This document shows positions 2,846-53,267 of a DNA stretch of 64,000 nt, piece after piece. Positions within the stretch are counted from its first letter, which is position 1. Every line of letters starts with the position of its first letter. Below the pieces are notes generated by a model. That model was not told the origin of the DNA. It saw nothing but the letters and a program-made list of their open reading frames with translations, and did no database searches. This DNA is from Cytophagales bacterium (GTDB lineage: Bacteria; Bacteroidota; Bacteroidia; Cytophagales; VRUD01), in the NCBI GenBank assembly GCA_019456305.1, contig VRUD01000012.1, positions 3,531 through 67,530 on the forward strand. The letters are read 5' to 3'. The position numbers and the translations under genes were made by a program.

Positions 2846-3361
2846 ATGAACACAATTATCTGCCCCTTCTTATTCCTGACAATTTTTAATCTCGCTCTCA
2901 CTGCCTGCTCGCAGAACGATGATCTTGATAAAAAACTAAAAAACATATTAGAATACAGCGTTCCAATTATTAAAGTAGAAGAAGCGCTAACACAGGAACA
3001 AAAGGATAATGTTTATTTTTTAGACACCCGCTCCAATGAGGAATATCTTGTAAGCCACATCCCCAATGCAATCTGGACAGGCTTTGATAAATTTAATATT
3101 CAAAAAGTGCTCGATATTCCAAAGGATGCATTAATTATCACATACTGCTCAGTAGGTTACAGAAGTGAAAAGATCGGGGAAAAGCTGCAGGAATCCGGTT
3201 ATAAAAATGTTTGGAATCTATACGGTGGTATCTTTGAATGGGTAAACCAGGGAAATGAAGTTTATAACAAATTTGACCAACCCACAGATAGCGTGCATAC
3301 TTATAACAGGAGTTGGGCAAAATATTTAGAAAGAGGGATAAAGGTAGTAAGTAGTAAGTAG
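2846..3361 (+). CDS. rhodanese-like domain lipoprotein
   Basis: Lipobox LALTAC; rhodanese core ...FLDTRSNEEYLVSHIPNAI...ITYCSVGYRSEKIGEKL...GGIFEW. ATG at 2846; the longer ORF-track start lies in repeat sequence. Confidence 0.8.
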   Translation: MNTIICPFLFLTIFNLALTACSQNDDLDKKLKNILEYSVPIIKVEEALTQEQKDNVYFLDTRSNEEYLVSHIPNAIWTGFDKFNIQKVLDIPKDALIITYCSVGYRSEKIGEKLQESGYKNVWNLYGGIFEWVNQGNEVYNKFDQPTDSVHTYNRSWAKYLERGIKVVSSK

Positions 3362-3457
3362 TAAGCAGTAAGCAATAGGCAGTAGACAATAGACAGTAGA
3401 CAAAAGACAGTAGACAATAGACAGTAGACAATGGACAATAAGACAATAGATTAATTG
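3343..3457. repeat. heptamer tandem array (GTAGTAA / ACARTAG units), family 'cagtagacaat'
   Basis: ggtagtaagtagtaagtagtaagcagtaagcaataggcagtagacaatagacagtagacaaaagacagtagacaatagacagtagacaatggacaataagacaatagattaattg. Related arrays at 11425-11450, 52985-53045, 53212-53255 (inverted) and 59296-59340. Confidence 0.9.
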
Positions 3458-3588: not shown

Positions 3589-4269
3589 GTGAAAGAGCTT
3601 CTGATCATCTTCGTCAAAAATCCTATTAAGGGCAAGGTAAAAACCCGTTTGGCCAAAACGATAGGAGATGATAAGGCTTTGCTAGTTTATCAATCCCTGT
3701 TGAGATATACAAACAGTGTTACAAAAAACATGGGCGTCAGTAAAGCTGTTTATTATTCTGATTTTATCCCTGAAAATGATATATGGACAGATGGAGTTTT
3801 TTTAAAATACTTACAAAAAGGGGAAAACCTGGGTGAAAGAATGAAAAATTCTTTTGAGCTTGCCTTTGAGCAGCATTATCAATCCGTTGTAATAATCGGC
3901 ACAGATTGCCCTACCCTATCCCAAAAGATCATTGAAGATGGTTTTTCTAAACTTAAAATTTTTGATTTTGTCACCGGCCCTGCCACTGATGGCGGTTATT
4001 ATCTTTTAGGGTTGAATGACCGCATACCTGCATGGCGTTCTATCTTACAAAATAAAAAATGGAGTACAAATACCGTTTTTAAAGAAACAATGAATGATAT
4101 TCAGAAATTAAATAAAACAGTCTGTGTTTTACAAAAATTATCAGATATTGATACGGAAAAAGACCTTTACAAATTACGAAGTACGAATGATGAATTCGTA
4201 CTTCATAAGATAAAATCCGAAATTCAAAATCCGAAATCCGAAACCACTAATTACACTAAATTAGTGTAA
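3589..4269 (+). CDS. DUF2064 / TIGR04282-family glycosyltransferase-like protein
   Basis: LLIIFVKNPIKGKVKTRLA..., VIIGTDCPTLS, GPATDGGYYLLGL. GTG start. The last ~20 codons (..KSEIQNPKSETTNYTKLV*) run into the repeat at 4212-4268. Confidence 0.65.
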   Translation: MKELLIIFVKNPIKGKVKTRLAKTIGDDKALLVYQSLLRYTNSVTKNMGVSKAVYYSDFIPENDIWTDGVFLKYLQKGENLGERMKNSFELAFEQHYQSVVIIGTDCPTLSQKIIEDGFSKLKIFDFVTGPATDGGYYLLGLNDRIPAWRSILQNKKWSTNTVFKETMNDIQKLNKTVCVLQKLSDIDTEKDLYKLRSTNDEFVLHKIKSEIQNPKSETTNYTKLV

Positions 4270-4329: not shown

Positions 4330-4914
4330 ATGGCATACATAAAAATTATTCAGCCTGAAGAAGCCGATAAACGGTTAAAAGAGATTTATCAGGATGTAAT
4401 TAAACGCAGGGGCAAATTAGCTGAAGTTCATAAGGTCCAAAGCCTCAACCCTGAAACTATTGTCAAGCATATAGACTTGTATATGTCAATCATGTATGGG
4501 CGTTCACCATTAAGCAGGGCGCAGCGGGAAATGATCGGTGTGGTAGTTTCTGCTGCAAACCAGTGTACATATTGTATGATACATCATGGCATGGCTTTAA
4601 ACCATTACTGGAAAGATGAGAACAAAGTAGCTCAATTGCGATTAAATCTGTCCCGCCAGAGGCGGGATCAATCCCGGGTACCCGGGTTAAATAAGGTTGA
4701 TAAATTACTTTGCCAATATGCCCGGGATTTAACTAAAGAACCGGACCTGGCTAACGAAGAAAATCATGTTAAACCATTAAAACAAGCCGGCCTTGATGAT
4801 AGGGCAATCCTTGACGCAACGCTGGTAATTGCTTATTTTAATTTTGTCAACAGGATGGTGACTGGGCTGGGAGTTACGTTGGAGGAAGAAGAAGCGGGAG
4901 AGTATAAATATTGA
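4330..4914 (+). CDS. carboxymuconolactone decarboxylase / AhpD-like peroxidase-related enzyme
   Basis: AhpD-core CxxC-type block ANQCTYCMIHHG and C-terminal ...ILDATLVIAYFNFVNR. Contains an in-frame GC-rich hairpin pair at 4651-4686. Confidence 0.7.
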   Translation: MAYIKIIQPEEADKRLKEIYQDVIKRRGKLAEVHKVQSLNPETIVKHIDLYMSIMYGRSPLSRAQREMIGVVVSAANQCTYCMIHHGMALNHYWKDENKVAQLRLNLSRQRRDQSRVPGLNKVDKLLCQYARDLTKEPDLANEENHVKPLKQAGLDDRAILDATLVIAYFNFVNRMVTGLGVTLEEEEAGEYKY

Positions 4915-6340: not shown

Positions 6341-6345
6341 AAAAA

Positions 6346-6394
6346 CGCATAGAGCATAGCGCATAGCGCATAGAGCATAGAGCATAGCACATAG
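6346..6394. repeat. (RGCATAG)x7 heptamer array
   Basis: cgcatag agcatag cgcatag cgcatag agcatag agcatag cacatag, starting 6 nt after the stop of the 4943..6340 CDS. Puts TAG in all three frames. Confidence 0.95.
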
Positions 6395-6400
6395 TGCCAT

Positions 6401-6532: not shown

Positions 6533-6601
6533 CATAATGTTAAAACACCTCAAAAACGCAGAGCGCAAATCGCATAGCGGTGAACCCCGCCTGTGGCGGG
6601 G

Positions 6602-6637
6602 CCATGCTCTATGCTCTATGCGCTATGCGCTATGCGC
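6602..6637. repeat. (CTATGCK)x5 heptamer array, inverted relative to 6346..6394
   Basis: ccatgct ctatgct ctatgcg ctatgcg ctatgcg, preceded by hairpin ccccgcctgtggcgggg (6586-6602). Puts ATG in all three frames. Confidence 0.95.
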
Positions 6638-7268
6638 TTTATTTATTATTACTTCAGCGAAGTGTCATAGCCAATCCTTTAAGATCGCCAAGTTCAAATA
6701 CAATGGCGGGGGCGATTGGTATGCTAACAAAACCTCTCTGCCTAACCTGATCGCATTTTGTAATAAGAACCTAAAGATGAACATTGCTGCTGAGGAAGAT
6801 ATTGTAGAAGCAGGCAGTCAGGAATTATTTTCATATCCATTTGTACATATGACAGGCCATGGTAATGTGGTATTCTCAAAACAAGAAGCATACAACCTGA
6901 GAAAATACCTTATAGGCGGAGGCTTTCTCCATATTGATGATAATTACGGGCTGGATAAATTTATCCGGGTGGAAATGAAAAAGGTTTTCCCTGAACTGGA
7001 TTTTGTGGAGCTGCCTTTTGATCATCCTATCTACCATCAGAAGTATAATTTTCCAAAAGGTTTGCCCAAAATCCATGAGCATGACGGCAAGCCGCCACAA
7101 GGGTTTGGCCTGATCTATGAAGGACGCCTCGTTTGCTTTTATTCATACGAATGTGACCTGGGCAATGGCTGGGAAGACCAGGTTATTTATAATGATCCTG
7201 AAGAGATAAGACGACAAGCACTGAAAATGGGAGCCAATATTCTCTCATTTGCGTTGACCGATTATTAG
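6618..7268 (+). CDS. DUF4159 domain protein
   Basis: FKIAKFKYNGGGDWYANKTSLPNL...YPFVHMTGHGNVVFSKQEA..LRKYL..GGFLHIDDNYG. I prefer the start at ATG 6618 (MRYALCALFIITSAKCHSQ, signal-like). The maximal ORF begins at 6537. Confidence 0.75.
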   Translation: MRYALCALFIITSAKCHSQSFKIAKFKYNGGGDWYANKTSLPNLIAFCNKNLKMNIAAEEDIVEAGSQELFSYPFVHMTGHGNVVFSKQEAYNLRKYLIGGGFLHIDDNYGLDKFIRVEMKKVFPELDFVELPFDHPIYHQKYNFPKGLPKIHEHDGKPPQGFGLIYEGRLVCFYSYECDLGNGWEDQVIYNDPEEIRRQALKMGANILSFALTDY

Positions 7269-8144: not shown

Positions 8145-8150
8145 ATTAAG

Positions 8151-8241
8151 CATGGCGCATAGCGCATGGCGTCCACCCTCATTCAAGCTCTTTTTCCCCG
8201 CCAACTGGCGGGGCCATGCGCTATGCGCTATGCGCTATCGC
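8151..8241. repeat. GCATAG-family inverted repeat with central hairpin
   Basis: catggcgcatagcgcatggcg ... ccccgccaactggcgggg (8196-8213) ... gccatgcgctatgcgctatgcgctatcgc. The last codons and the TAG stop of the aminotransferase (..AIAHSA*) are made of repeat units. Confidence 0.9.
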
Positions 8242-9684
8242 TCCCAAAATAACTTTACACGCTTCTTTGATCTCTTCTTTTGTAATAATTAAAGGCGGTG
8301 TTATTCTCATAGCGCTGTCACAGTAAAGAAACCAATCAACAAAAACCCCGGTGGTGTCAGAAACCCTACCTGACTGTTCCGTATTTCTCGGGGAGATACA
8401 TTTATCAATGATAGATTTTAATTGATCATAAGATTCAAACTGAAGCGCCATCATCAGTCCTTTACTTCTGATAGCCTTGATTTTGGGATGTGCTAATAAT
8501 TCGATGAATAGTCTTTCTTTTTCCGCTACTACAGCCCCCCCCAACCCCCCCGAAGGAGGGGCTTTGCCAACGCTTTTGCCAGCCCCCCCTAAATCCCTCC
8601 TGCCACTATTTCTTACCGAATCGGTGAATGGGTGAATGGGTGAATCGGTGAATCGCTTCGTTTTCCTGTTCTCCGTTTCTCCGATTCTCCGGTTCTCCGA
8701 TTCAGGGGGGCTTGGAGTTAGAGGGGGGAGGGGGGGGCTGGCAGTTGGGCTGATTAGTTCCAAAGAAGCGAGCCCTGCAGCACAGCAGACGGGATGACCA
8801 CCAAAAGTAGTGATATGTCCTAAAACAGGATTGGTTTTTAAGACAGACATAATTTCCTTTGAAGAGATAAAAGCGCCAAGCGGCATACCCCCTCCGATCG
8901 CTTTGCCGCAGCATAAAATATCCGGCACAACGTCAAAATGCTCAAAAGCAAACAGCAATCCTGTTCTGCCAAAGCCTGTTTGAACCTCGTCAAAAATTAG
9001 AAGTGTGCCCGACTCGCTGCATTTGTTTCTCAGTGTTTTTAAATATTCTTTGTCAGGTATTATTACACCCGCTTCTCCCTGGATGGGCTCTATAATAACC
9101 GCTGCAATTTTATCTGTGATATATTCCAGATCTTCAGTGTCATTGAATTTTATATGTCTTACCTCCGGTAATAATGGCCTGAACGCTCTTTTAAACACTT
9201 CGCTCCCGTTTAATGATAAGGCGCCATGCGTAGAACCGTGATAGGCATTTTGAAGTGAAATAATTCCAGTTCTGCCGGTAAATCTTTTGGCTAATTTTAT
9301 CGCCCCTTCTACCGCTTCACTACCGGAATTAACAAAATAGGTGCATTCTAATTGAGCAGGAAGATTTTCAGCAAGCTTTTTGGCAAGCATTACCTGTGGC
9401 GTTTGCACCAATTCTCCGTAAGCCATCAGGTGAAGATATTTATCAAGCTGCTCCTTGATCGCTTTTATAACTTCTGGATGACGGTGGCCTACATTATTCA
9501 CGCCAATCCCGGATATCAGGTCTATGTACTTTTTCCTACTTGCCCCGCTTGTCCCGGTCCTATCGGGTTTTTTGGGGGCTTTTCCAAACATATATACTCC
9601 TTCTGCGTAGTCAATCTCAAGCATAGAAGGAAAATCAGAAGTTTGGGCTAAATGGTTCAGGAAATCTTGTTTTATTGTGTTCAT
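8221..9684 (-). CDS. class-III (acetylornithine/GABA-type) PLP aminotransferase carrying in-frame repeat insertions
   Basis: ISGIGVNNVGHRHPEV, FVNSGSEAVEGAIKLA, LIFDEVQTGFGRTG, CCGKAIGGGMPLGAF, GGHPVCCAAGLA. ATG at 9684. Repeat-derived segments at 8530-8757 and 9543-9567. Confidence 0.85.
   Translation of the reverse strand: MNTIKQDFLNHLAQTSDFPSMLEIDYAEGVYMFGKAPKKPDRTGTSGASRKKYIDLISGIGVNNVGHRHPEVIKAIKEQLDKYLHLMAYGELVQTPQVMLAKKLAENLPAQLECTYFVNSGSEAVEGAIKLAKRFTGRTGIISLQNAYHGSTHGALSLNGSEVFKRAFRPLLPEVRHIKFNDTEDLEYITDKIAAVIIEPIQGEAGVIIPDKEYLKTLRNKCSESGTLLIFDEVQTGFGRTGLLFAFEHFDVVPDILCCGKAIGGGMPLGAFISSKEIMSVLKTNPVLGHITTFGGHPVCCAAGLASLELISPTASPPLPPLTPSPPESENRRIGETENRKTKRFTDSPIHPFTDSVRNSGRRDLGGAGKSVGKAPPSGGLGGAVVAEKERLFIELLAHPKIKAIRSKGLMMALQFESYDQLKSIIDKCISPRNTEQSGRVSDTTGVFVDWFLYCDSAMRITPPLIITKEEIKEACKVILGAIAHSA
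8583..8744. repeat. 162-bp GC-rich palindromic element, intragenic copy A (copy B at 27238..27399)
   Basis: About 158/162 identical to 27238..27399. Built from C-run/G-run termini and 8-mer arrays (GGTGAATS)x4 and (CTCCGNTT)x3 that can pair. Confidence 0.95.
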
Positions 9685-9700
9685 GTATTTGTGTGTTAGT

Positions 9701-9740
9701 GTGTTCACGTGAGCACTTGAACATATGAACACGTGAACAC
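9701..9740. repeat. CACGTG-containing palindrome (gtgttcacgtg ... cacgtgaacac)
   Basis: 17 nt upstream of the aminotransferase ATG. A related 85-bp palindrome lies 10 nt upstream of the MuiA-like gene (48632..48716). Confidence 0.85.
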
Positions 9741-10041: not shown

Positions 10042-11331
10042 ATGAAATTCTTATTAATCATTATCATCTTTTCCTTCAATAAAGATTCTCTTTCCAAAGC
10101 CGCCCTGATTGATACTATGCTTGCCGATAAATATTTTAATAAAGCTACTCAACTATTTAATAATGCCCAATATGACAGCTCTGTATTCTATCTACAAAAA
10201 GCAAGCGATATTTACCTGGCTTTAGCAAAGTCTGTTGAAGGATCAGCACAGAATTCCCCCTCTCCACTTGTGGAGAGGGGGCAGGGGGTGAGGTGGAAAA
10301 AATATGTTGAATGTAATAATGTATTGGGCAATACTTTTTATACTATAGCTGAATATAATAAAGCTGTGGATCATTTTAGCATTTCCGCTAAAATTGGTTT
10401 ATTAAAATTGGGGGGTAAGCATCTCTATATTGCTGATGCTTATACGGGTCTGGGAGTTGTGTACTGGATGAGACGTGAAAATGATAAAGCGCTCAATTTT
10501 CAAAAAAAAGCCCTGGAAATAAAAAGTGCATTCTATGAAGGCGATCATCCTCATATTGGTTTGTGTTATAATAATATAGGACTTATTTATAATGATCAGG
10601 GCGATTATTATACCGCATTGGAATATTTTAACAAAGCATTATCAATCTACATGAAACACATTGCAAACCACCAGCATCCTTTGTTTACTGCTAGTTATAA
10701 TAATTTAGGTCTTGTATTTTTTAATATAAAAAACTATGCAAAAGCCATTGAATGTCATCAAAAATCCCTGGAAATAAAATTAAAGACATTGGGTCCGGAT
10801 CATCCTGATCTGGCTATAAGCTATAATAATCTTGGGGACGTTTATCGAATTTATGGCAACTATGACAAGTCGCTTGAGTATTTTCATAAAGCAAGAGTAC
10901 TCATAGAAAATAAAATTGGCAAACAGCATCCTTATATTGCCCTCTTTTATTTTAATATCGGAAAAGTATATGCAGATAAAAGAAACCATGATGAAGCAAT
11001 GAATTATTATCAGAAGGCATTGAAAGTTTCTGTAAATATTTTTGGTCAATACCACCCGGATGTAGCTGATACATATTATGAAACCGGGAACATATTTGCA
11101 GCAAAAAAGGAACTTAATACTACATTGATCTATTACCAGAAAGCCCTGAAATCATTATTCAAAGAATTTTCTAATAACAGGGTTTTTATTAATCCTGTAA
11201 TACCCACTACATTTGAGAGCAAAAAAGAACGGGAGGAGTTTCTTAAGAAAATAAATTCTTTGCCTCTTTTGCTCGATGTGTTAGAGAGCAAGGCAGAGGC
11301 GTTTTATGAGAAATGGAAGATGTCACCCTAA
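10042..11331 (+). CDS. tetratricopeptide-repeat protein (kinesin-light-chain-like TPRs), possibly C-terminally truncated
   Basis: About 7 TPR_12-like units (..HPDLAISYNNLGDVYRIYGNYDKSLEYFHKA..). In-frame hairpin element at 10256-10296. The stop lies inside a repeat (11322-11354). Confidence 0.75.
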   Translation: MKFLLIIIIFSFNKDSLSKAALIDTMLADKYFNKATQLFNNAQYDSSVFYLQKASDIYLALAKSVEGSAQNSPSPLVERGQGVRWKKYVECNNVLGNTFYTIAEYNKAVDHFSISAKIGLLKLGGKHLYIADAYTGLGVVYWMRRENDKALNFQKKALEIKSAFYEGDHPHIGLCYNNIGLIYNDQGDYYTALEYFNKALSIYMKHIANHQHPLFTASYNNLGLVFFNIKNYAKAIECHQKSLEIKLKTLGPDHPDLAISYNNLGDVYRIYGNYDKSLEYFHKARVLIENKIGKQHPYIALFYFNIGKVYADKRNHDEAMNYYQKALKVSVNIFGQYHPDVADTYYETGNIFAAKKELNTTLIYYQKALKSLFKEFSNNRVFINPVIPTTFESKKEREEFLKKINSLPLLLDVLESKAEAFYEKWKMSP

Positions 11332-18406: not shown

Positions 18407-19249
18407 ATGAACCCCGAAGACAAAGATATAGATATAGAATTTACCGAGCTTGAGAAGCTCACCTCCGCTATAAAAGAGACGTACAATTACGATTTCACAA
18501 ACTATGCAATGTCTTCTTTCAGAAGAAGGACATGGAGAATTTTAGAAAAATATGAGCTGGATTCTGTGGAGGTGTTAACAAAAAAAATTCAGGATGACAT
18601 CAATTTTTTCAAAGAGGTGCTCTCAGAAATTACCGTTAGTGTTACCGAAATGTTCAGAGACCCATCCATGTGGCAAATACTGCGAGACGATGTAATTCCG
18701 GATATCATACAGAGACCAAAGATCATTAATATCTGGCATGCAGGATGTTGTACAGGAGAAGAGGTTGTTTCAATTGCCATATTATTAAAGGAAATGGAAT
18801 TATTAGACTTTGCACGTATTACAGCTACTGATATTGACCACGTAATATTAGAAACAGCTTCAAAATGTACGCCTCCCTTGAGGCATATGGATATTTACAT
18901 AAAAAATTATACGGAATTTTCAGGGAAAGCAAAATTAAGTGATTATTACAAAGAGGAGAATGGCCTGGCTAAGATGGACAGGTCTTTGATGGAAAAAGTA
19001 ACATTTAAAGAACACGACCTTGTTGCCGGCAAACCCTTTTCAAAATTTGATCTCATTATTTGCAGGAATGTGATGATCTATTTTAACCAGAAATTACAAA
19101 ATAACGTACTAAAATTATTACACCAAAGTTTAGAAATGAACGGATATCTGATCATAGGACAACAAGAGTCTTTGATATGGTGTGAAATAGCGAATAAATT
19201 CAGTGTAGTGAACTACAGGGAAAAAGTTTATAAAAAAATAGCAGAATAG
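18407..19249 (+). CDS. cheR: CheR-type protein-glutamate O-methyltransferase
   Basis: YDFTNYAMSSFRRR..., TEMFRDPSMW, INIWHAGCCTGEEVVSIAILL, DLIICRNVMIYF. Confidence 0.85.
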   Translation: MNPEDKDIDIEFTELEKLTSAIKETYNYDFTNYAMSSFRRRTWRILEKYELDSVEVLTKKIQDDINFFKEVLSEITVSVTEMFRDPSMWQILRDDVIPDIIQRPKIINIWHAGCCTGEEVVSIAILLKEMELLDFARITATDIDHVILETASKCTPPLRHMDIYIKNYTEFSGKAKLSDYYKEENGLAKMDRSLMEKVTFKEHDLVAGKPFSKFDLIICRNVMIYFNQKLQNNVLKLLHQSLEMNGYLIIGQQESLIWCEIANKFSVVNYREKVYKKIAE

Positions 19250-19253
19250 CTGA

Positions 19254-19300
19254 CCCCGAGTGGTAGAGACGTTGCATTGCAACGTCTCTACCACTCGGGG
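19254..19300 (+). terminator. perfect 22-bp stem / 3-nt loop hairpin after cheR (repeat family 'ccgagt..tagagacg')
   Basis: ccccgagtggtagagacgttgc-att-gcaacgtctctaccactcgggg. Related hairpin at 63681..63739. Confidence 0.5.
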
Positions 19301-19333
19301 ACAACTATTTGTACATTTCGAAAATATATTTAA

Positions 19334-23647: not shown

Positions 23648-26600
23648 CTAATGTTTTATCAATTTAACATACCCGGAACTCACGCCATTACTCAATTTTA
23701 AAACGTACACCCCTTTCATCATTTTTACTACGTTATCATCAAGTTCAATCATATGATCCCCTGCAAATTGATACTGATCAACCAAAATAGCTATTTTCTT
23801 ACCCGGCAAATCAAAAATATTCAGCACAATATGTCCCGGCTCGTTCAACCGGTATGAAATAGTAATGCTTTCATCAAAAGGATTCGGATAAACCCGTAAC
23901 CCGAAACCCGAAACCCGAAACTCATTTATAGCAGTGGGGTTTTGAAATACCTGCCCGTCAGAGGAAGTAATATTTGACAACAGGCCTGCACCGTTTTCGG
24001 CCTTCACAGAAAAATAATAGGACTGCCCAACGATCAGGGTTAAGCCGGTATCTGTCAAAGTAACTATACCATTATCTGTCCAGCCAACGATGTCGCTGTC
24101 TCCGGGCATAGTACCTATGGCATACCGGTATTTTGCTATACCTGAATTGGTGTCGGTTGAAGGGGCCCAGTTAGCGGTAAGCTCCCCGGCAATGTAGGTG
24201 GTATCAATATCGGCAGCAGCGCCATCGTTAATAGCAGCAATGTCAGCAGGTGTAGTCCAGTCTATGTTTACACTTAATCCGGCAGGGGCAGACCAATTTT
24301 CTGCCGAATCTTTCACAATAGAGACTATTTTACAGGATGGTGTGGCCGGGCCTGCATTTTGAAACCTGATGTCATTGGCAGCTGCAGAGCCAAGGGTGAT
24401 CAATTCGGAATTGGCCCTAACTTTATATACTTTCAGGTCATCATACATCACGTTGGCATTGCCTGTTCTCAATGATATATAACTTCCGGTAGAATATGGT
24501 GAAGGATCAATCCACGAAGATACGAGTTGATCATCACGATACCCCTTTATTTCCCCTGTGGCAGGATTAAAGATCACCTTAAAGTCATACCACACACCGG
24601 GGTCTAAAATACAGGGGTCATTGGTTTGAATGGCCCAGGTATCATTTGTTACTTTATAGATCTGGCATTTATCCTGGTCAACGCGGTAGTACACGAAATA
24701 TGAATTTCCCCTGTTGGGCAGCGAGCCGTCATCAGAGAAGAAATGAATGCCGCTTCTCCGGTTAACACCTGAGCCGTTCATGTTTGCCTGCCAGTGGTAC
24801 AAATATATTTGTGTAGAACCCTGAGCTAATGAAGCATAAATATTGGTATTTCCCTGGCTTTCATCCGTTTGATGAATGGCGCCTGAATTGATCACCCAGA
24901 TACCGGCAGTATCCGTCCAATCCGGGTGAATGGCAATGTCAAAATGGTCATTAAAGAAACCATTATTGTCATTGGCTCTCCATTCAACGCCATTGAGATC
25001 AAGCGCCTGGTAAAATTGCAGATCAAGGCCGCTGCCTCCGGGATTATCTGCATCCGTAAACGTTGCCATGAAATCGGTTGTTTCAAAAAAACCCGGATTA
25101 CTGATTGATGTGGCGGGAGGCAAAAAGTCAACAGAGTCTAAATTGCAGCTCCAAATGGCATCCCAACCCGGGTTTACTGCTGAACCATCTGATGTAAACC
25201 TGAAGGTAATATCACCGCCCGAAGAAACGATGGTACCGGGCGAATTGGTACCGGTGAAAGGACTTCCGGGAATTTGTGGCGAGGCTGTACCTGGGCCGTC
25301 ATGTATATATAAATAATCCCAATTCAATTCAATATCAAAAAAAGTAAAGGACACAGTGATTGAAGCAGCGCCAGCAGGAGAAATGGTAAATAGATGGTCT
25401 TCATTATTGAAATAGGTTCCCAATTCACCGCCTGAATCTCTGAATAAACCCGAGCATAATGTTGTTGTTTGTGATTGGGCAGCAGGCGTGTTAAAGGAGG
25501 AACCACCAAAGCCGGAAGAATCAGCTACACACAATGTAGAAACCTGCCAGTAATAAATGGCATTGGAGGCAAGGCCTGTCAGGGTATAATTATTGGATGA
25601 AACATTTACGTAAGTCCAGGAGGCATCAAGATTTCGTTTGTATTTTAAAAGATACCCCAATGCACCTGCCACAGTGTCCCAGGTCAGGTCTGTGGTAAAA
25701 GCAGCCATATTACTTTCAGTGAGGTTGGTCGGTAGAGGACATGCCAGGGGAATCGTGTCTGATGTCCAGGCAGCTTCCCAGCCGGGATTGTTGGTGTTGC
25801 AGTCCGAACGAAATTCGATCAAAAAAGAGCCGCTTTGTGCAGTGATCGTCCCGGGTGAATTGGTGCCGGTATAAACGCCTGTCAGCGGATCATCTACCGT
25901 GGTTCCGTCATAAATATACAAGTAATCCCAGTCTGTTTCCAGGTCAAAAGAAAGGTAGGTTAGAGTCACCGAAGCAGCTCCGGCCGGGCTGATCAGCCAG
26001 AAGGATCGTTCATCATCAGCATAATTGGAAGCCGGCCCTCCGCTGTCATAAAATGTGTCGGATGAGGCCGTGTAGGTAGTAACAACCATACTATCATTGA
26101 TCAACTGGTAAAAATATTTCCAGTCCCAGTAAATACCCGGGTCGGTGTGCGTTTGATTTGGATAATGCTGGTGTCCCTTGATTTTAATACATCCCCCAAG
26201 CAGGCAGCTTGAGCTGCTGCCGGAACAGGCAGGCCCGGAATACGTTCTTAAAGGATTAATCCCGTAGTCATTGCAGATATCTTTTACAAGGTCTGCCGAA
26301 GCCTGGTACATTACCTGTGTGTACCAACCGGGCTGGCCGGCATATCCTTCATGCTCCAACCCAATGGTATATGGATTTTCTGAACCAACGTGCCAGCCTT
26401 TATCAACTTCGCAAACCATTTGCGTGATCTGTCCGTCTAAAGAACGTAATACGTAGTGAGCAGATACATTAGCAGCCGGATTCTGAAACCAGGAAATGGC
26501 TCCCGCATAAGATCCTTCAATATCGTGAATAACAACAGCAGAAATTAGTGTACCAGCCCTTGAAGAATAGTTGGAGGGGTCGGCCGGAACCCAAGTCACA

Positions 26601-27649
26601 CCTGGATAATCTATGCACGGTTGATTTGGTGATTTGATCTTATATTGAATATTATCATCACCGGTAACCGTATTATTGTTGATCATTACTTCTTTGGAAG
26701 ATAAGACACGGTAATTGTTCTTTCCAAAAACTTTTTGCAGGTTAATGTTATGATCCGGAATATTAAATGCTGAACAAAACTCACTATCATTCAATAAAGT
26801 CAATACTGAATAAATATGCGAATTAATTGCAAAATCATTAACCGTATTGTCATTCCGGGCAGGGCGAAAGCCAGTGGCTTTCGAGCCAGCCTGAGGGATG
26901 GAGCCAATGGGAATGGCTGAGCGAGGAATCTCCTTTGGATTTACCACCGAGTTCTCGGGGCGCGCGATTTTTGAATCCACGTGTAATTCACTCAACTCAA
27001 CAATAATTGTGATATAATCCACTGGATTTGCAGTGTGAATATTTTTGGAGTTTATTAGTGACGAAAATGCCGCTGCATAAGCCAAAATATTCTGACGAGG
27101 GTCGTTGATAATATCCTCTACAGCTATTCCTGAAAGGTTTGAAACAAGCTCCAGGTTATTTCTAAAATATCCTTTACCATCCAGCACAAGCCCCATTACA
27201 CCGTAGTAAGCAGGCAGACCTGTGCAGCTTAGAGCAGTCCCCCCTAAATCCCTCCTGCCACTATTCCTTACCGAATCGGTGAATGGGTGAATCGGTGAAT
27301 CGGTGAATCGCTTCGTTTTCCTGTTCTCCGTTTCTCCGATTCTCCGGTTCTCCGATTCAGGGGGGCTTGGAGTTAGAGGGGGGAGGGAGGGGCTGGCAGG
27401 GATAATATGCCTGATTCGGGTATTGGTATAGGCAATGGCTTCTAATAATCCCCCGGGTATGTCGGGATAATTAAGATATGCTTCCTGAAAATAATTTTTG
27501 TATTGTGTATCGGGTGCAACTGAAGGAGCAGCCCCCATTGAGCGGATTGCTTGTGCAAAACACTCTCCGCTCCAACCAAAGCCATGTGTGTAGCAGGCAA
27601 ACAACTGGTTTATGAACAATAATAAAAGTAGTAAGATTTTTTGTACCAT
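23648..27649 (-). CDS. large secreted multidomain protein: unknown N-terminal domain, PGRP/Amidase_2 N-acetylmuramoyl-L-alanine amidase, 2 CUB-like, FN3, LamG-like, FN3, T9SS CTD
   Basis: Amidase_2: VVIHDIEGSY..AISWFQNP.ANVSAHYV......Q.V....KGWHVG..N.YTIGLEHEG. CUB-like: DSGGP.SNY.....FWLISPAGAASVTLTY.SFDLE..WDYLYIYDG (twice). CTD: VYPNPFDESITISYRL...GVYVLKL. ATG at 27649. Confidence 0.85.
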   Translation of the reverse strand: MVQKILLLLLLFINQLFACYTHGFGWSGECFAQAIRSMGAAPSVAPDTQYKNYFQEAYLNYPDIPGGLLEAIAYTNTRIRHIIPASPSLPPLTPSPPESENRRIGETENRKTKRFTDSPIHPFTDSVRNSGRRDLGGTALSCTGLPAYYGVMGLVLDGKGYFRNNLELVSNLSGIAVEDIINDPRQNILAYAAAFSSLINSKNIHTANPVDYITIIVELSELHVDSKIARPENSVVNPKEIPRSAIPIGSIPQAGSKATGFRPARNDNTVNDFAINSHIYSVLTLLNDSEFCSAFNIPDHNINLQKVFGKNNYRVLSSKEVMINNNTVTGDDNIQYKIKSPNQPCIDYPGVTWVPADPSNYSSRAGTLISAVVIHDIEGSYAGAISWFQNPAANVSAHYVLRSLDGQITQMVCEVDKGWHVGSENPYTIGLEHEGYAGQPGWYTQVMYQASADLVKDICNDYGINPLRTYSGPACSGSSSSCLLGGCIKIKGHQHYPNQTHTDPGIYWDWKYFYQLINDSMVVTTYTASSDTFYDSGGPASNYADDERSFWLISPAGAASVTLTYLSFDLETDWDYLYIYDGTTVDDPLTGVYTGTNSPGTITAQSGSFLIEFRSDCNTNNPGWEAAWTSDTIPLACPLPTNLTESNMAAFTTDLTWDTVAGALGYLLKYKRNLDASWTYVNVSSNNYTLTGLASNAIYYWQVSTLCVADSSGFGGSSFNTPAAQSQTTTLCSGLFRDSGGELGTYFNNEDHLFTISPAGAASITVSFTFFDIELNWDYLYIHDGPGTASPQIPGSPFTGTNSPGTIVSSGGDITFRFTSDGSAVNPGWDAIWSCNLDSVDFLPPATSISNPGFFETTDFMATFTDADNPGGSGLDLQFYQALDLNGVEWRANDNNGFFNDHFDIAIHPDWTDTAGIWVINSGAIHQTDESQGNTNIYASLAQGSTQIYLYHWQANMNGSGVNRRSGIHFFSDDGSLPNRGNSYFVYYRVDQDKCQIYKVTNDTWAIQTNDPCILDPGVWYDFKVIFNPATGEIKGYRDDQLVSSWIDPSPYSTGSYISLRTGNANVMYDDLKVYKVRANSELITLGSAAANDIRFQNAGPATPSCKIVSIVKDSAENWSAPAGLSVNIDWTTPADIAAINDGAAADIDTTYIAGELTANWAPSTDTNSGIAKYRYAIGTMPGDSDIVGWTDNGIVTLTDTGLTLIVGQSYYFSVKAENGAGLLSNITSSDGQVFQNPTAINEFRVSGFGLRVYPNPFDESITISYRLNEPGHIVLNIFDLPGKKIAILVDQYQFAGDHMIELDDNVVKMMKGVYVLKLSNGVSSGYVKLIKH
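27238..27399. repeat. 162-bp GC-rich palindromic element, intragenic copy B
   Basis: See 8583..8744. Same orientation and same reading frame within a different gene. Confidence 0.95.
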
Positions 27650-27665
27650 AGGATAATTTTTGTTT

Positions 27666-27799
27666 AAATGACTATCCGCCTTTATAAACAATATTAGTCC
27701 CGTAGGGACGACCTGTTTGTAGAAAAAATGTCAATACAGCAATAAGCTCCGTAGGAGCGACCTGTTAAAACTTTTGTTTATCTTTGCGGATAGTCATTT
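27666..27799. repeat. 25-bp imperfect inverted repeats enclosing two 21-bp direct repeats
   Basis: aaatgactatccgcctttataaaca ... tgtttatctttgcggatagtcattt. Inside are gtcccgtagggacgacctgtt (27707) and gctccgtaggagcgacctgtt (27746). Confidence 0.85.
27779..27786 (+). promoter_or_regulatory. candidate -7 promoter box for gldH
   Basis: TATCTTTG, 70 nt upstream of ATG 27856, embedded in the right inverted-repeat arm. Confidence 0.4.
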
Positions 27800-28452: not shown

Positions 28453-28616
28453 CACCTAACCCCCTCTCCACTAACGTGGAGAGGGGGAACTTTGAAGGGT
28501 AGAACATAAAATATTGAATACATCTATTATAATCAAGACTGCAGAGGAACAAAAAAAGAAATTAGAAAAAACTCCCCCTCTCCACGTTAGTGGAGAGGGG
28601 GCCGGGGGGTGAGGTG
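28453..28616. repeat. 164-bp element whose two arms are themselves hairpins (ccctctccac-NNNN-gtggagaggg)
   Basis: Left 28453-28487, right 28574-28616. The same ~41-bp unit lies in the TPR CDS (10256-10296); a variant is at 34211-34243. Confidence 0.9.
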
Positions 28617-28912
28617 AACGGTATAACAAACTGGTGCTCCCGCTTTTGTTCAGTTTTTTGCGTACAATATGCCCCAAATATAAGCCGAAACACCCAAGAA
28701 TATATCTTTGATAGCAACTAACTTACTGATATTCAATAACTTACAATTTAAAGTAAAGAGGGGTGACGAAAACAGGAATAGAATAACATTTTAAATTGAC
28801 TTCAAAAAAATATCGAATATCAAACACCGAATAATGAATGTAAAATTTGACATTGGTTATTCAATGGTCATTGGTATAGCGCCATCCACTGGATGACGGA
28901 AAGTTGGTTAAC

Positions 28913-34548: not shown

Positions 34549-37500
34549 ATGAATTTAAAAACCTTCATTGTCTTATTCGTATTTTACAACTGGTTTACCG
34601 GTAATTTATTCGCCCAATCAAATGATTGTGCAACTGCCACACCAATAGACCTTTCTACCGGTTCTGCTTGCGTTACAGGAACTACTGTTGGCGCTACCAG
34701 TGATAATATTTTATACGGGGGTTGTAATACTTCAGCAGTTAACGAAGTTTGGTATACTTTTGTAACTAATGGAACGGTTAATGATTTTACAGTCACTCCC
34801 GCAACTTTAACTAACTCGATGATCGTAGTAGACGGTACCGGGTGTATTGATGGTGTATTTCAAACTTGTGCAGCAGTTATGGGAAGCAGTACAGTAACTG
34901 ATTCCTGGAGCTTCCCTCCGGGTACACAGGTTTGGATAGCTGTAGCAAGTAATCAAGGTACGGAAGGGATTTTTGACCTATGCATCACCTCATCAACTCC
35001 CCCACCTGCTCCAGGAAAAACCTGTGCTACAGCTACGCTGATTTGTGATAAAACTCCTTTTAGTCTCACAAGCACGCCTATGGGTTCAAGTGGCCTACAA
35101 CCTTCATGTTTTTTAAATGCTGTTCAACAGGATGTCTGGTATCAGTTTACCGTTGGTCAAACCGGTACTTTGGAATGGCTCGCTACACTTGTTGGTGGTC
35201 AGGCTGAATATGACTGGGCAATTTTTGATATTACTATGGGCTGCCCCGGTATTGAAGTTTCCTGCAACTATAATTTTGCAACTGGCAACAGCGGGAGTGT
35301 AGGAATGCAGTCAGGTGTCATGGGCTGCCCCCCGGCTATGGGTTCACCGTCAATTAAGGAAAAATGTCAACCCATCACAGTTACTGCAGGAAATACATAC
35401 GTGATCTTAATTGACAACTGGTCTGCAAATGGCGTAGGCTTTGACTTCACCTGGGGCGGAACTTTTGAAATGGCGCCCACTTCCGCTTTAATAGTTTCAC
35501 CTGATACAGGATGCGGCTCAGTTACGGCATGCTTTACGAATAACAGTGTTGGTGCAACGAGCTATGACTGGAATTTTGGTGACGGCTCTATGAATTCTAC
35601 TGCCTTTACTCCGCCTTGTCATACCTATTCTACACCGGGAACGTACTTAATTTCCTTAACCACTACCTCAGCTTCGGGTTGTACAGACGTCTCTTCTGCG
35701 TCCGTACAGGTATTCCAGGGGCCTACTTCCATTTTTACTGCTTCCCCATCACCAATCTGTATAGGCGATACCGCTATCATCACCTATGCCGGCAACGCAA
35801 CACCAGGGGCAACCTATACATGGAATTTTGCTGGCGGTACCATTATCACCGGTACAGGACAAGGGCCTTATGCAATTGGTTGGTCCACATCAGGAGTAAA
35901 AAATATTACGCTGCAGGTTACAGAAAACGGGTGTCTATCTACAATTACCACTATTTCAATAACCGTAACGCCCGCACCAACCTCAACGTTTACCGCTACA
36001 ACGCCACTTTGTTTTGGTGATTCCTCTGTGGTCACTTATACCGGCACAGCGGGTGTTGGCGCTGCGTATAACTGGGACTTTGACGGAGGGATTATCCTCT
36101 CAGGAACCGGACAGGGGCCCTATCAAATTAGTTGGTCTACTTCGGGTATAAAAAATATTACCCTTTATGTTATTGAGAATGGGTGTTCTTCTGATACTAC
36201 TACAATATCGGTTACAACACCGGCTCCCCTTACCCTAACGCTTTCTAAAACTGATGTAACCTGCTTTGGCGCCTGTAATGGCACTGCTTCTGCTTCAGCA
36301 GTTACCGGGGGTACCTCCCCCTATACATATCTTTGGGATGATCCATTATCACAAACTACAGTTACTGCTACAGGTTTATGTGCAGGAACCTATGCCGTTA
36401 CAGTAACCGATGCTAATGGATGTACAATTACCTGTGGCGGCTTTTTATTAACTTGTTTTGAAATTACAAGCATTTTGGTTGATGTATGCACAGCAGGTAA
36501 CGAAGGAGAACAGGAAATGTTTGCATTTCAGGTTGGGAGCAGTTCATTGAATACTGCTGATATGAGCGTTGTCTGGCCCAATAATTCCTGGAAGGGTGTA
36601 TGTACTGACCCGGTCTTTGTGGCTGATGCAAACAGCACCATTACCGGTGGCGGGTACCTGGTAGAACCACCGGGCGGTATCATACCTGCCGGTGCTTCGG
36701 TAATTATGGTTACAAGCACGGCCTTTAATACTTCTTTTGCCAGCTTTGTGGATCTCAGCGATACGGTTTATATCATATTCCAGTGTGCAGGCAGTCTGAC
36801 TGGCCATTTTGCCAACTATTCAGCAGGAGGCGGAACCAGAACATTAACCGTTACTTTTGCCGGCTGTGGCGCTGATATTGTTTCTTATGAAAGGGATTTG
36901 CTTAGTTCATCAAATGGAGCAGCCGTTAACTATGATTTTGCAGGAAATCCTACTTATTTCAACAACGGTTGTACCGCACCTTTTGATAACTTTGCTGCAA
37001 CACTTTGCGTTATCGTTTCTGAACCAGCTCCAATATCCTTATCCACCACTACATCCCCCACCACCTGTGCCGGTGACTGTGACGGATCTGCTACGGTAGT
37101 TGTTGATTCAGGCGGTACGCCCGGTTTTACTTATTCATGGAATGATCTTGGTTCACAGACTACTGCTACTGCCACAGGACTATGTGCCGGTATTTTTACA
37201 GTGGTGGTTACAGATGCCAATGGATGCACGGCAACTGCAACTGACACAGTGAATGATGGCCCGCTTGCTTTAGCCGGATTTACCTACAATGGAAATCAAT
37301 GTTTAACCGGCAACAACTTTATTTTTACGAATACGGGAACGCCTCCTGGACCTGGGATAAGCTATACCTGGAGTTTTGGAGATATGGGTACAAACACATT
37401 AGAAAATCCCACCCATACTTATGCTGATACCGGAAGCTATACCGTTATACAAACAGTGACCAATGGAGTTTGTTCTGCTGTTTTCTCAATAGTCATAACG

Positions 37501-40500
37501 GTTTTTCCTGAACCAACAGCTTCTATTGCCGGAACCAATGTTACCTGTAATGGAGTTTGTAACGGTGCAGCAGACCTTACAGTTACAGGAGGAACAGGGC
37601 CATATACCTGGCTGTGGAGCCCTGGTGGAGAAATTACCGAAGATCTGATAGGATTATGTCCCGGAACTTATGATGTCACCGTTACTGATGTGAATGGCTG
37701 CCAGGACAGCGCTGTAATTGTGATTACAGAACCGCCTTTATTATCCTTGTTAATTTCAAAAACCGACCTTATCTGCAATGCCGTATGTAACGGAACGGCT
37801 GACCTAACCGTTACAGGAGGTACTACACCTTATACATATTTGTGGTCGCATGGTCCAACAACCCAGGATGTAACCGGGCTTTGTGCCGGTACCTACCAGG
37901 TTGTTGTTACCGATTCGAATGGCTGCCAGGATTCTATTTCTGTAGTAATTACGGAGCCCACAGCATTATCACTATCCGTTTCCGGAACCAACCTTATTTG
38001 TAATGGCATGTGTGATGGTGCAGCAGATCTCACTGTTATAGGCGGTACTACCCCTTATACTTATGCGTGGTCGCATGGCCCTGCAACCCAAGATGTAACG
38101 AGTCTTTGTGCAGGTACTTACGAGGTGATTGTAACTGATTCCAATAGCTGTCAGGATTCCATTGATGTTATTATAACTGAACCTCCCCTTCTCACAGTTG
38201 CTGCTACAAGCACCGATCTGCTTTGTAATGGAGTATGTGATGGCACTGCTTCTGCTGCCGTTTCGGGTGGAACAAGTCCCTACACCTACCAATGGGATGA
38301 TCCTGCAGGTCAAACTACCGCAATTGCTGATAGCCTGTGTGCAGGAACATACCAGGTAGTGGTTACCGATACCAATGGCTGCCAGGATTCTGCAACTGTT
38401 ATTATCAACCAACCTCCTGTTTTAAGTACACTCATTATTGGCGACAGTCTAAATTGTAATGGTGTGTGCGATGGTGCGGCAGATCTGACCGTTGTCGGTG
38501 GAACGCCACCCTATACCTATTTATGGTCAAACCTTGAAACTACCCAGGATATATCCGGTTTATGTGCAGGTCTGCATACTGTTGATGTTTTTGATGTGAA
38601 TGGGTGCAATATGTTTGATGCTATAGTCATCGGTGAACCTCCTTTGCTAACGGCAAGCATTGTTGATTCAAATGTCAGTTGTAATGGAGTTTGTGATGGC
38701 GCTGCAGATGTGACCGTTTCAGGCGGCATACCCTCGTATTCCCACTCCTGGTCAAACCTTCAAACCACCGAAGATATAACGGCTTTATGTGCCGGTACTT
38801 ATGCTGATACCATAAGGGATGCCAATGGATGTACGGTGATCGTAAGTACAGTGATCAGCGAACCTACAGCACTTGCAACCTTAATAGCAGGTACGGATAT
38901 TACTTGTAATGGTGTCTGTGACGGTGCTGCCGACTTAACCGTTACCGGTGGTACTACACCCTATACCTTTTCGTGGTCAAATGGACCTACAACTGAAGAT
39001 ATTTCGGTGTTGTGTGCCGACACATTTAATCTTGCCGTCACAGATTCCAACGGATGTACCATTTCAGATTTGGTGATCATAAATGAGCCTCCGGTTCTTT
39101 TAACAACCATTTCCGGAACAAATGTCACTTGTAATGGAGCTTGTAACGGATCGGCAGACCTTACTGTTACCGGAGGCACACCCGGCTATTCTTATTTGTG
39201 GAGCCCCGGTGGAGAAACTTCGCAAGACCTGATGGGAGGCTTGTGTCTCGGTACCTATGATGTAACCGTTACCGATTTGAATGGCTGCCAGGATAGCGCC
39301 ACAGTGATCATTACCGAACCTTTGGTTCTTTCAACTGCCGTTGCCGGAACTAATGTTAGTTGTAATGGATTTTGTAATGGATCGGCAGACCTGACCGTTA
39401 CAGGCGGCACACTGCCTTATTTGTTCTTATGGTCAAACCTTCAAACCACAGAAGATATTTCCGGCTTGTGTGCGGATACGTTTAGCGTTACGGTTACCGA
39501 TTCCAATCTATGTACAGGTTCAGAAACTGTTATTATCACGGAACCCCCTCTGCTGACGGCTAATGTAGTTGGTACCAATATTAGCTGCAACAGCGTCTGT
39601 GACGGATCAGCAGACCTTACCGTTTCAGGGGGTACGCTGCCTTATTCCTATCTATGGTCCAATACTGATACTACAGAAGATATATCCGGTTTATGTCCGG
39701 GAACTTATAGCGTAACGGTCACGGATTCTAATGGATGTACAGCTTCAGACAGTGCAATTGTTATTGAGCCAACCCCTATTGCGCTTACCGTTTCAGGCAC
39801 GGATGTAACCTGCAATGGCGCCTGTGACGGACAAGCAAGCGCCAGCGTCTCTGGCGGAACTACCCCTTATACTTACCAATGGAATGATCCATTTTTACAA
39901 ACCACACCAACTGCTGATAGCTTGTGCGCAGGTACTTACCAGGCGCTCATAACCGATGCAAACGGCTGCCAGGATTCTGCAACCGCTGCCATCATTGAGC
40001 CTCCGGTATTAACTGCTTCTACCGCAGGAAATGATGCAAGCTGTAATGGCGTATGTGACGGTGATGCTACTGTAACTCCTTCAGGTGGTACATCACCCTA
40101 TACCTATCAATGGGATGATCCCTCATTCCAGATAAACGACACGGCAACCGGTTTATGTGCGGATACAGTCAACGTAACAGTGACAGATTCCAACGGATGT
40201 ACTTTTGATACAAGCTATACGGTAAATGAACCAGCTGCCATGACGCTAACCCCCGGTAGCGTAGATGCCACCTGCGGGATAGCAAATGGAGAGGCATCAG
40301 TGTTCGTTTCAGGCGGTACGAGCCCTTATACCTATTTGTGGTCACCGGGTAGTCAAACTACCGATACGATTACAGGACTATCTGCAGGCGCCTATACGGT
40401 TGTGGTTACAGACGCAAATCTTTGCAGTGATTCAATAACCATATCCGTAAACGATGCCGGAGCTCCCACTGCCAGTATAGTAGATAGTATAAATGTTAGT

Positions 40501-50105: not shown

Positions 50106-50324
50106 AACGTACGAATGGGTGCCAGGTGGAAACCCCGAAGAATTTTCCCCCGAGTCATTCGGGGGGACAGGCGGGGCAGGCACCTGACACCACATTAAAA
50201 AGACAAAAGTAAAAAATTTTATTCCTTTTTACTTCTTTTTTGAGGATTTTTACTGAGAAACAGGCTATCTGGCAGGGAATATTGTAATATCAAAGCAGAA
50301 AGGTTTTATTTTTAAAAATTTTTA

Positions 50325-51080
50325 TTAATAGTAATAATACTCCTCCGGCACTTTCTTGTAAATTGGTATCAGCCAGCCAAATTTTATCCCCCATAGCGTA
50401 TCAAATCTTTTCGTTTCGTCCTTTGCCATGGTATCAAAATTAAAATCCCGCCTGCTTTTGGTCCATGCCTGGGTAAATTCAATATTGATGAAAAAGTTAA
50501 TCCGCTTTTTTTTATCCAGGTAGAGGTAGCCAAAACTTTCCGTTATCGCTGATCCATTGGTCAGTCTGTCATAGCCTTTAATATAATCTCCGGCTATTTG
50601 TGGTACTGTCCGGGTAATATCCTGTATCTTTATTTTATGTTGCAACAAGCCATATCCTATCAATACAAAGCATCCTGAGTTGGCATTAGCCTTTAATATT
50701 TTATAATTCCATAATTTACCAACTTTTATAAAAGGTAATTTCATTCCTCTTTCAGAGATCCTTACTTCGGCAAACAACCCATCGCTCCCAATGATCTCCC
50801 CACTTTCTGTTTTTATACCGTCTAAAATATTATCCTCCTTTACATTGTCACCCCATAAAAAATTGCCATCAATGCCAATTATCCAGTTGCTTTTCGTTTT
50901 GAAAAAGAACCCTCCTCCAATCTCTGCATTATTGCCAAATCTGTCCGCCATATCACCTCCGGGTAATTCATAGCCTGTATTAACAAAAAAAACAGGTATA
51001 TTCGCAGCAGTGTCCTTTATTTGCGCAACCAGGGTAAAGGGGGAAAGCGCATAGAGCATAGAGCATAGCGCATAGCGCAT
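50325..51080 (-). CDS. hypothetical exported/outer-membrane-like protein; start uncertain
   Basis: I prefer ATG 51080 (MRYALCSMLYALSPFTLVAQ, signal-like, encoded by CTATGCG repeat units). The maximal ORF extends to 51245 entirely through repeat DNA. Confidence 0.55.
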   Translation of the reverse strand: MRYALCSMLYALSPFTLVAQIKDTAANIPVFFVNTGYELPGGDMADRFGNNAEIGGGFFFKTKSNWIIGIDGNFLWGDNVKEDNILDGIKTESGEIIGSDGLFAEVRISERGMKLPFIKVGKLWNYKILKANANSGCFVLIGYGLLQHKIKIQDITRTVPQIAGDYIKGYDRLTNGSAITESFGYLYLDKKKRINFFINIEFTQAWTKSRRDFNFDTMAKDETKRFDTLWGIKFGWLIPIYKKVPEEYYYY

Positions 51081-52945: not shown

Positions 52946-52978
52946 AGGAATAAGGAAATAGGGAATTCATCAATTAAT

Positions 52979-53262: not shown

Positions 53263-53267
53263 ACTGA

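Follow-up and report, generated by a model that had tools for sequence, protein, structure and literature searches.

We report here a GC-rich palindromic DNA element, probably a member of a mobile family, that lies in frame within two unrelated protein-coding genes in a stretch of 64,000 nucleotides from a Cytophagales bacterium (assembly GCA_019456305.1, contig VRUD01000012.1, positions 3,531 to 67,530; hereafter the window, whose first letter is position 1). The first gene (8221..9732, minus strand) is an intact open reading frame (ORF) for a class-III aminotransferase of the acetylornithine/putrescine type (Aminotran_3, E 3e-92); its likely true start is M17, at 9684, and among proteins of solved structure it comes closest to putrescine and acetylornithine aminotransferases. 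The second (23648..27691, minus strand) encodes an N-acetylmuramoyl-L-alanine amidase of 1347 residues with Amidase_2, CUB, fn3 and Por_Secre_tail domains, secreted by the type IX secretion system (T9SS), whose C-terminal sorting domain it carries.

Repeat search and pairwise alignment place copy A of the element at 8580..8744 and copy B at 27235..27399, both on the minus strand, as a direct repeat identical at 161 of 165 positions (98%), with four mismatches at 8583, 8611, 8638 and 8733. An earlier note on this DNA had read from the letters a match of 158/162 over 8583..8744 and 27238..27399, which the alignment reproduces exactly, and the Amidase_2 and Por_Secre_tail domains bear out its view that the second copy sits in an unrelated secreted amidase. 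Copy A encodes residues T330-A384 of the aminotransferase (TASPPLPPLTPSPPESENRRIGETENRKTKRFTDSPIHPFTDSVRNSGRRDLGGA), and copy B is in frame near the amidase N-terminus; both proteins contain the string LPPLTPSPPESENRRIGETENRKTKRFTDSPIHPFTDSVRNSGRRDLGG. A 20-mer from the central loop occurs at two sites in the 64-kb window, both in these copies, with 0 expected. As already remarked in the earlier note, the insert is more GC-rich than its surroundings: 59%, compared with 41.7% for the host aminotransferase gene and 39.4% for the window. The frame used is, as also claimed, free of stops, and it is the only such frame among the six. The two copies indeed share orientation and frame, but the additional weight that the note placed on this fact does not hold: with stops in five of six frames, the agreement is forced on any copy that spares its host gene and is not independent evidence. 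It is a survivorship filter, imposed by selection.

The element, of ~160 nt, consists of terminal inverted repeats (TIRs) of ~17 nt, arms of four tandem octamers each and a 16-nt loop. In copy A, the left TIR (8578..8589, plus-strand sequence GCCAGCCCCCCC) is the perfect 12-nt complement of the right one (8731..8742, plus-strand sequence GGGGGGGCTGGC). One stem arm comprises four tandem octamers GGTGAAT(G/C) (8623..8654), the unpaired central loop is GCTTCGTTTTCCTGTT (8655..8670), and the opposite arm holds four CTCCGNTT units (8671..8702), not three as first counted, which pair with the GGTGAATS units at 7 of 8 positions. As DNA, the element folds as a single long imperfect hairpin (-37.5 kcal/mol, z -5.0), in agreement with its initial description as an imperfect long palindrome, and the mRNA-sense RNA reaches -65.9 kcal/mol (z -4.2). 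Its single open frame specifies a peptide of low complexity. Across the 11 DNA copies that we collected, length varies between ~120 and 175 nt, while the ends are conserved, with the consensus termini CAGCCCCCCCTCTAACTCC / GGATTTAGGGGGGGCTG and the terminus consensus CAGCCCCCCCT(C)TAA(C/A)TCC. The element is thus shorter than ~300 bp, multi-copy and devoid of transposase-coding capacity, and is bounded by TIRs in the form of the perfect 12-nt pair and the family consensus termini, all features of MITEs, or miniature inverted-repeat transposable elements. No intrinsic-terminator tail was found after the element; a search of Rfam yielded no match at the gathering score, only generic hairpin matches with E of at least 0.1; and no Pfam or NCBIfam model matched the element peptide at E <= 10.

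Comparison with homologs demonstrates clean insertion. Aminotransferase homologs are ~393 residues long, and in the ~65 that were aligned, the linker between ...LASLELI and KE.LF has 11-13 residues, compared with 77 in the window protein; the estimate of ~35 residues for the family linker in the earlier note was too high, whereas its expectation that orthologs lack the segment was correct. The same applies to the amidase, where none of the 55 inserted residues is found in any of the 11 aligned homologs, which read ...TRI.HI..., then a few residues, then SCTGLP..YGVMGL. The amidase also contains a second lineage-specific segment of ~40 residues (26828-26995, minus strand; HVDSKIARPENSVVNPKEIPRSAIPIGSIPQAGSKATGFRPARNDNTV), with 52% GC and several small hairpins, that is absent from 11/11 homologs.

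The aminotransferase retains every family-invariant residue, and outside the inserts, with the insert-adjacent alignment columns removed, its ratio of nonsynonymous to synonymous divergence (dN/dS) relative to the closest relatives is 0.08-0.13. Together with the intact ORF, these observations imply that the gene is not a pseudogene, a possibility that had been raised as a caveat, and indicate strong purifying selection. In an AlphaFold2 model (predicted TM-score 0.80; model numbering is ORF numbering minus 16), the whole insert (model residues 315-379) is coil with a predicted local distance difference test (pLDDT) score below 50, flanked by helix 298-311, the last of the pyridoxal phosphate (PLP) domain, and helix 383-396, the first of the C-terminal domain. 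The insert peptide is accordingly predicted to be disordered between two confidently modeled helices; the earlier note had proposed to check by structure prediction whether it maps to a surface loop.

The family extends well beyond the window. When the element peptide was searched exhaustively with HMMER against 1.84 billion representative proteins, 13 genuine further, unrelated host proteins were identified that carry the peptide in frame at 64-98% identity and derive from at least two Bacteroidota metagenome-assembled genomes (MAGs) and other metagenomes; with the window pair, the hosts number 15. One "Cytophagales bacterium" MAG or ENA bin (proteins MBW80...; ENA ERZ23499938) contributes a biotin carboxylase, an inositol monophosphatase, a SAM hydroxide adenosyltransferase, an aspartate kinase (two copies), an NAD-dependent epimerase and a PglZ response regulator. 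A second MAG, which also has an intergenic copy, contributes an ABC ATPase, a lipoprotein and a Reg_prop sensor, and other metagenomes contribute a PAS protein, two TPR proteins and one protein that we take to be SpoIIE-like from reading its sequence, with no Pfam check. Several matches are nameless; those with a source name all come from MAGs of Bacteroidota (Cytophagales bacterium, Bacteroidetes bacterium) and none from Rickettsia. The family is dispersed in unrelated genes, and its presence is lineage-specific. In the biotin carboxylase, the 42 element residues are a clean insertion: the flanking positions correspond to residues 278/279 of a Protein Data Bank (PDB) chain, which are contiguous in solved biotin-dependent carboxylases.

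At the DNA level, an nhmmer profile built from five copies and run on the window and on 88 kb of the Cytophagales bin detected the two window copies and eight in the bin, all genic and in the sense orientation. Two in-frame copies (L018, 1572-1726 and 1995-2131) reside in one aspartate kinase gene, and a diverged copy in a GT2 glycosyltransferase gene (L020, 5502-5638), found de novo by nhmmer and missed by the protein search, carries an additional hairpin nested in it and an octamer array that has expanded; nested smaller palindromes or expanded octamer arrays are present in some family copies. A word-indexed protein search with the element peptide returned a single match, P0121, of 57 residues, whose ORF proved to be spurious: it covers a shortened copy of the element in the intergenic DNA just downstream of a CHU_C gene (contig L011, from a Bacteroidetes MAG). 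This decayed variant lacks three octamers of one arm and folds no better than shuffled sequences (z -1.1); its intergenic position identifies the family as a DNA element and not a protein module. Further copies, whose absence the earlier note had named as a refutation, do exist, in 13 proteins, at eight DNA sites in 88 kb of the bin and as one intergenic variant. Scans of genome contigs with the loop 20-mer produced only six unrelated single chance matches, in high-GC or unrelated genomes, and a scan of metagenome contigs with a 19-mer produced only three chance matches. Two HMMER matches, P0253 (from the fluke Clonorchis) and P0256, were discarded as tandem-repeat low-complexity artefacts.

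In four of the host genes, the NCBI MAG protein falls far short of its ENA counterpart in the same 90% cluster (307 vs 561 residues for P0242/P0257, 232 vs 320 for P0243/P0258, 318 vs 533 for P0245/P0259 and 407 vs 581 for P0248/P0261), and the shorter versions begin shortly upstream of an element copy. It seems that gene calling or annotation is disturbed in element-bearing genes, or that the assemblies differ.

A further comparison is between the aminotransferase gene and three metagenomic relatives for which DNA is available, L001, L002 and L003 (JGI 3300022665; SRR12068625; SRR29093000), which are, respectively, 95.7%, 95.2% and 81% identical to the window gene outside the inserts. Neither L001 nor L002 has the 165-nt element at the loop. 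At the insert site, L003 shows only the plain 13-residue linker and so is empty; L001 is occupied by another palindrome, of 111 nt, whose 15-nt termini are perfect (AGCCCCCCTTAGTCC / GGACTTAGGGGGGCT); and L002 has yet another GC-rich sequence bearing a hairpin. Homology to L002 is missing over window positions 8530-8757, precisely the span that the earlier note had marked out. Once the 165-nt element is subtracted from the window sequence, 45 extra nucleotides remain (8536-8580), and their counterpart in L001 is the right half of its palindrome. The GC-rich hairpin adjoining copy A, which the earlier note had correctly seen, is hence the remnant of an older, different resident palindrome (8533..8579, minus strand, encoding GKSVGKAPPSGGLGG). 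On the sense strand, this remnant ends in ...GGGGGGGGCTGTAG, and given this end, it could be REP-like (repetitive extragenic palindromic). The 165-nt element would thus have arrived beside or inside an older resident, and the 2.4% difference between the window copies, set against a synonymous divergence (dS) of ~0.16 between the strains, fits an arrival after the strains split. Judging from these alignments, the aminotransferase loop appears to be a hot spot that holds different elements in near-identical strains.

Other parts of the same gene differ as well. A separate 42-nt GC hairpin insertion (9537..9578, minus strand) lies in frame in the N-terminal region (around PKKPDRTGTSGAS); it is present in the window and in L001 and absent from L002, at 95% identity, and from L003, a presence/absence polymorphism among close relatives. 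At the opposite end, a heptamer-repeat palindrome, (GCGCTAT)n plus CCCCGCCAACTGGCGGGG (8192..8236), overlaps the 3' end of the gene and supplies its last residues (…AIAHSA) and stop codon; the C-termini of L001, L002 and L003 all differ, each diverging right after ...VILGA/EA.

We consider it likely that the 165-nt element belongs to a non-autonomous, MITE- or REP-like family of palindromic mobile DNA that is dispersed in the Cytophagales lineage and survives in frame as a neutral loop. Under this scenario, the element would be moved in trans by an enzyme encoded elsewhere, and insertions would land anywhere in the genome; the survivors within genes would be those in the sense orientation, with the single stop-free frame, a length divisible by three and a site where additional residues can be accommodated. 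Such copies would be transcribed and translated within the host protein, adding a low-complexity peptide of 42-55 residues, rich in Pro, Ser, Gly and charged residues, that would form a disordered surface loop and travel as a neutral passenger. A loop that bears a palindrome would then turn into a hot spot, where new elements insert next to or into older ones or replace them, and this turnover would cause near-identical strains to differ at the loop. Neutrality of the peptide is suggested by the ratio of nonsynonymous to synonymous polymorphism (pN/pS) among ten aligned copies, which is 0.83 in the translated frame and 0.62 and 0.92 in two untranslated frames; because the value for the translated frame lies inside the range of the untranslated ones, no constraint is seen beyond that of staying open, and the peptide apparently evolves about neutrally. 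The broader proposal of the earlier note, a selfish palindromic repeat that inserts in frame in the manner of the Rickettsia palindromic elements (RPEs), is supported by the orthologs, the further copies, the strain differences and the structural model.

Several observations weigh against this scenario or temper it. No transposase, RAYT or other mobilizing gene was found in the scanned window ORFs or in 88 kb of related contigs, a scan that covered the Pfam matches of 30 of the 43 window ORFs of at least 150 aa and the called genes of the 88-kb relatives. An unambiguous target-site duplication of fixed length is not definable across the aligned copies: CAG borders each of the two window copies but is not found beside those in L011, L015, L016 and L021, and an empty site at nucleotide resolution is lacking because the same site in the relatives holds other elements. 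Compensatory changes in the stem affect only 1 of 33 pairs among ten copies, so that selection on the hairpin is not evidenced, although the copies are too alike for covariation to be informative here. The remaining copies came mostly from protein searches, which biases the sample toward genic ones, and the insert is only presumably translated.

Among the alternatives, the one that fares best, and which we nevertheless regard as unlikely, is that the hairpin is kept for a role at the RNA level, such as a translational pause at a domain boundary, mRNA stability or processing, with the peptide as a by-product. The high stability of the mRNA-sense hairpin speaks for such a role, as does the location of the aminotransferase copy, precisely at the junction of the large PLP domain with the C-terminal domain. 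The sites in other hosts, however, are not systematically domain boundaries, the biotin carboxylase copy being inside the ATP-grasp domain; the stem is without covariation, the L011 variant has lost three octamers and with them its folding advantage, the terminator-like tail is lacking and near-identical strains manage without the element.

It is very unlikely that the insert is a functional protein module, for instance a tag, a disordered linker or a motif for interactions, that recombination has spread on account of a benefit to the host. The peptide is recognizably conserved over the 15 hosts, but its pN/pS is not below that of the unused frames, and those hosts span cytoplasmic enzymes, a secreted amidase and a lipoprotein. 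An intergenic copy exists, a palindrome with inverted termini is superfluous for a peptide module, and the peptide is predicted to be disordered and matches no Pfam or NCBIfam family.

Removal or skipping of the insert before the protein is finished, as an intron, as an intein or through translational bypassing, appears highly improbable. GC-rich hairpin inserts in some AT-rich mitochondrial genomes are reportedly bypassed by the ribosome, but the genic copies of this family all stay open in frame and divisible by three in length, which would be needless if the insert were removed. Searches of Rfam, Pfam and NCBIfam revealed neither the splicing motifs of inteins nor the ribozyme structure of group I or II introns, with no Rfam intron or ribozyme match and no intein-like termini or size. 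Finally, repeats can attract misassembly, and our view of the source genome is confined to the window, but that the element is an assembly artefact or its hosts dead pseudogenes is extremely improbable, given that independent assemblies from ENA, NCBI and JGI contain in-frame members of the family, both window ORFs are intact with unique flanks, and the aminotransferase combines a full set of invariant residues with low dN/dS.

The window is rich in other palindromes and repeats. Many palindromes have stems of tandem heptamers, often around a CCCCGCC....GGCGGGG core, with units (GCATAGM)n, (TAGACAR)n and (AAACCCG)n (6342-6397 / 6601-6640, 8150-8236, 51030-51228; 3348-3452, 52967-53271, 59284-59360; 4213-4245, 23890-23922, 58580-58626); this architecture resembles that of the cyanobacterial short tandemly repeated repetitive (STRR) heptamer sequences, and the octamer arms of the 165-nt element are assembled on the same plan. 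The second family of palindromes consists of CCCCCTCTCCAC....GTGGAGAGGGGG and then GGGGGTGAGGTG; it is represented at 10256-10296, in frame in a TPR gene (10042-11331) where it encodes ...SPSPLVERGQGVRW..., and at 28460-28493 and 28568-28624, both intergenic. Two near-perfect palindromes with 29-32-nt arms (19245-19309 and 63681-63739) share CCCCGAGT(GG)TAGAGACG and a GTAG motif; they lie at, or within ~40 nt of, the ends of a CheR ORF (19249) and a 2-oxoacid dehydrogenase E2 ORF (63642), respectively, and are probably REP-like or terminator elements. Short GC-rich hairpins are located inside or at the 5' edge of ORFs for a CMD-family protein (4648-4686), a DUF4159 protein (6570-6616, putative N-terminus) and an acyl-CoA dehydrogenase (50145-50194, putative N-terminus), and some of these may only seem genic through over-extended ORF starts.

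The window also shares other repeat families with the Cytophagales bin at 97-99% identity, lying between ORFs of at least 150 aa, which indicates that the window organism and the bin are close relatives, rich in small repeats. The dispersed repeats, of ~70-260 nt, are 90-99% identical to bin contigs L015, L018, L019 and L020 (959-1055 and 62286-62388; 52992-53246; 51431-51614; 54871-55041; 2744-2814 and 4240-4307) and, unlike the 165-nt family, are situated between the window ORFs of that size. Nearly all the large direct-repeat families in the window are accounted for by a single ORF of 4146 residues (34549-46989, plus strand), with dozens of diverged 225-nt (75-residue) repeats bearing the motif C..G.Y.V.VTD.NGC, which looks like a gliding or adhesin protein of the SprB/CHU type.

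How does the 165-nt family relate to known small mobile elements? RPEs are a textbook oddity of selfish DNA that survives translated inside functional genes. The closest behavioral parallel is with RPE-1 and the related RPE families (PMC10969869, PMC3733652), and in reviews, fusions of MITEs in frame with genes are called "not unusual", RPEs being the most extreme example (PMC10969869; PMC3733652). Like RPEs, the element is a palindromic repeat of ~100-165 bp that by itself codes for nothing, has copies scattered through the genome and lies repeatedly in frame inside unrelated conserved genes, where the added peptide sits at places that still permit folding, with no dedicated transposase known; the 15 hosts, the orthologs that lack the segment and the purifying selection on a host gene all conform to this behavior. 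Unlike the described RPE families, which are restricted to Rickettsia (Alphaproteobacteria) and to which it belongs neither by sequence nor by taxon, it is found in Bacteroidota (Cytophagales); it combines a high GC content, within an AT-rich genome, with termini of G/C runs and tandem-octamer arms, shows strain-level turnover and nesting at one site, and has copies across several MAGs. We know of no sequence similarity between the two: there was no match to NCBIfam, which presumably holds the TIGRFAM RPE domain models, or to Pfam, and no named Rickettsia match.

REPs and the bacterial interspersed mosaic elements (BIMEs) that they form, including intragenic GTAG/CGTC REPs such as those of Opitutus terrae (PMC3733652), are likewise GC-rich stem-loops that cluster and nest, are sometimes in frame in ORFs and sometimes supply the stop codons of neighboring genes, as other window palindromes do. 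REPs, however, are 20-40 bp long with a GTAG or CGTC tag, compared with ~160 nt and untagged TIRs of ~17 nt here; no GTAG/CGTC was found at the ends, and no RAYT/Y1 transposase was seen among the scanned genes of 152 kb. With bacterial MITEs (ERIC, BOX, Coxiella QMITE1, Anabaena MITEb/MITEe, Correia/NEMIS; PMC10969869), the family shares the size class, TIRs, non-autonomy, foldback structure and occasional in-frame genic copies; it differs in that no target-site duplication or parent insertion sequence is identified and in the unusually high share of in-frame genic copies, 10/10 DNA copies in 152 kb, in a sample biased toward genic ones.

More distant analogies also come to mind. Cyanobacterial STRRs and very small nested dispersed repeats form hairpins from short tandem units and insert into one another, and the yeast mitochondrial GC clusters are GC-rich palindromes that colonize an AT-rich genome, including its coding regions. 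These are analogies only, the organisms and sequences being different.

Searches of a limited literature collection, in line with the remark of the earlier note that it knew of no equivalent family, found no such family described for Bacteroidota or Cytophagales, although absence is not proven. Apparently, this is an RPE-like element family previously undescribed in Bacteroidota and a second, independent and recent RPE-like system. Outside Rickettsia, to our knowledge, mostly short REPs or isolated cases of MITEs have been documented, whereas here a long palindromic family behaves in an RPE-like manner in core enzymes of Bacteroidota, namely, biotin carboxylase, aspartate kinase and an ArgD-like aminotransferase. 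The inserts lengthen proteins by 40-70 residues and may confuse gene calling. The differing loop inserts of near-identical strains provide natural with/without alleles for testing neutrality, movement and the origin of disordered loops. A bolder reading, which we hold tentatively and at somewhat less than even confidence, is that several families of GC-rich palindromes may be active in the lineage at present and may continually rewrite its protein loops and termini, as suggested by the loop palindromes that differ between ~95% identical strains, by the nesting of elements and by the elements that supply C-termini and stops. If so, this would be an RPE-like system in a free-living organism, equipped with presence/absence alleles, where the way that selfish DNA gives rise to new protein segments, as well as the mobilizing enzyme, would be directly amenable to study.

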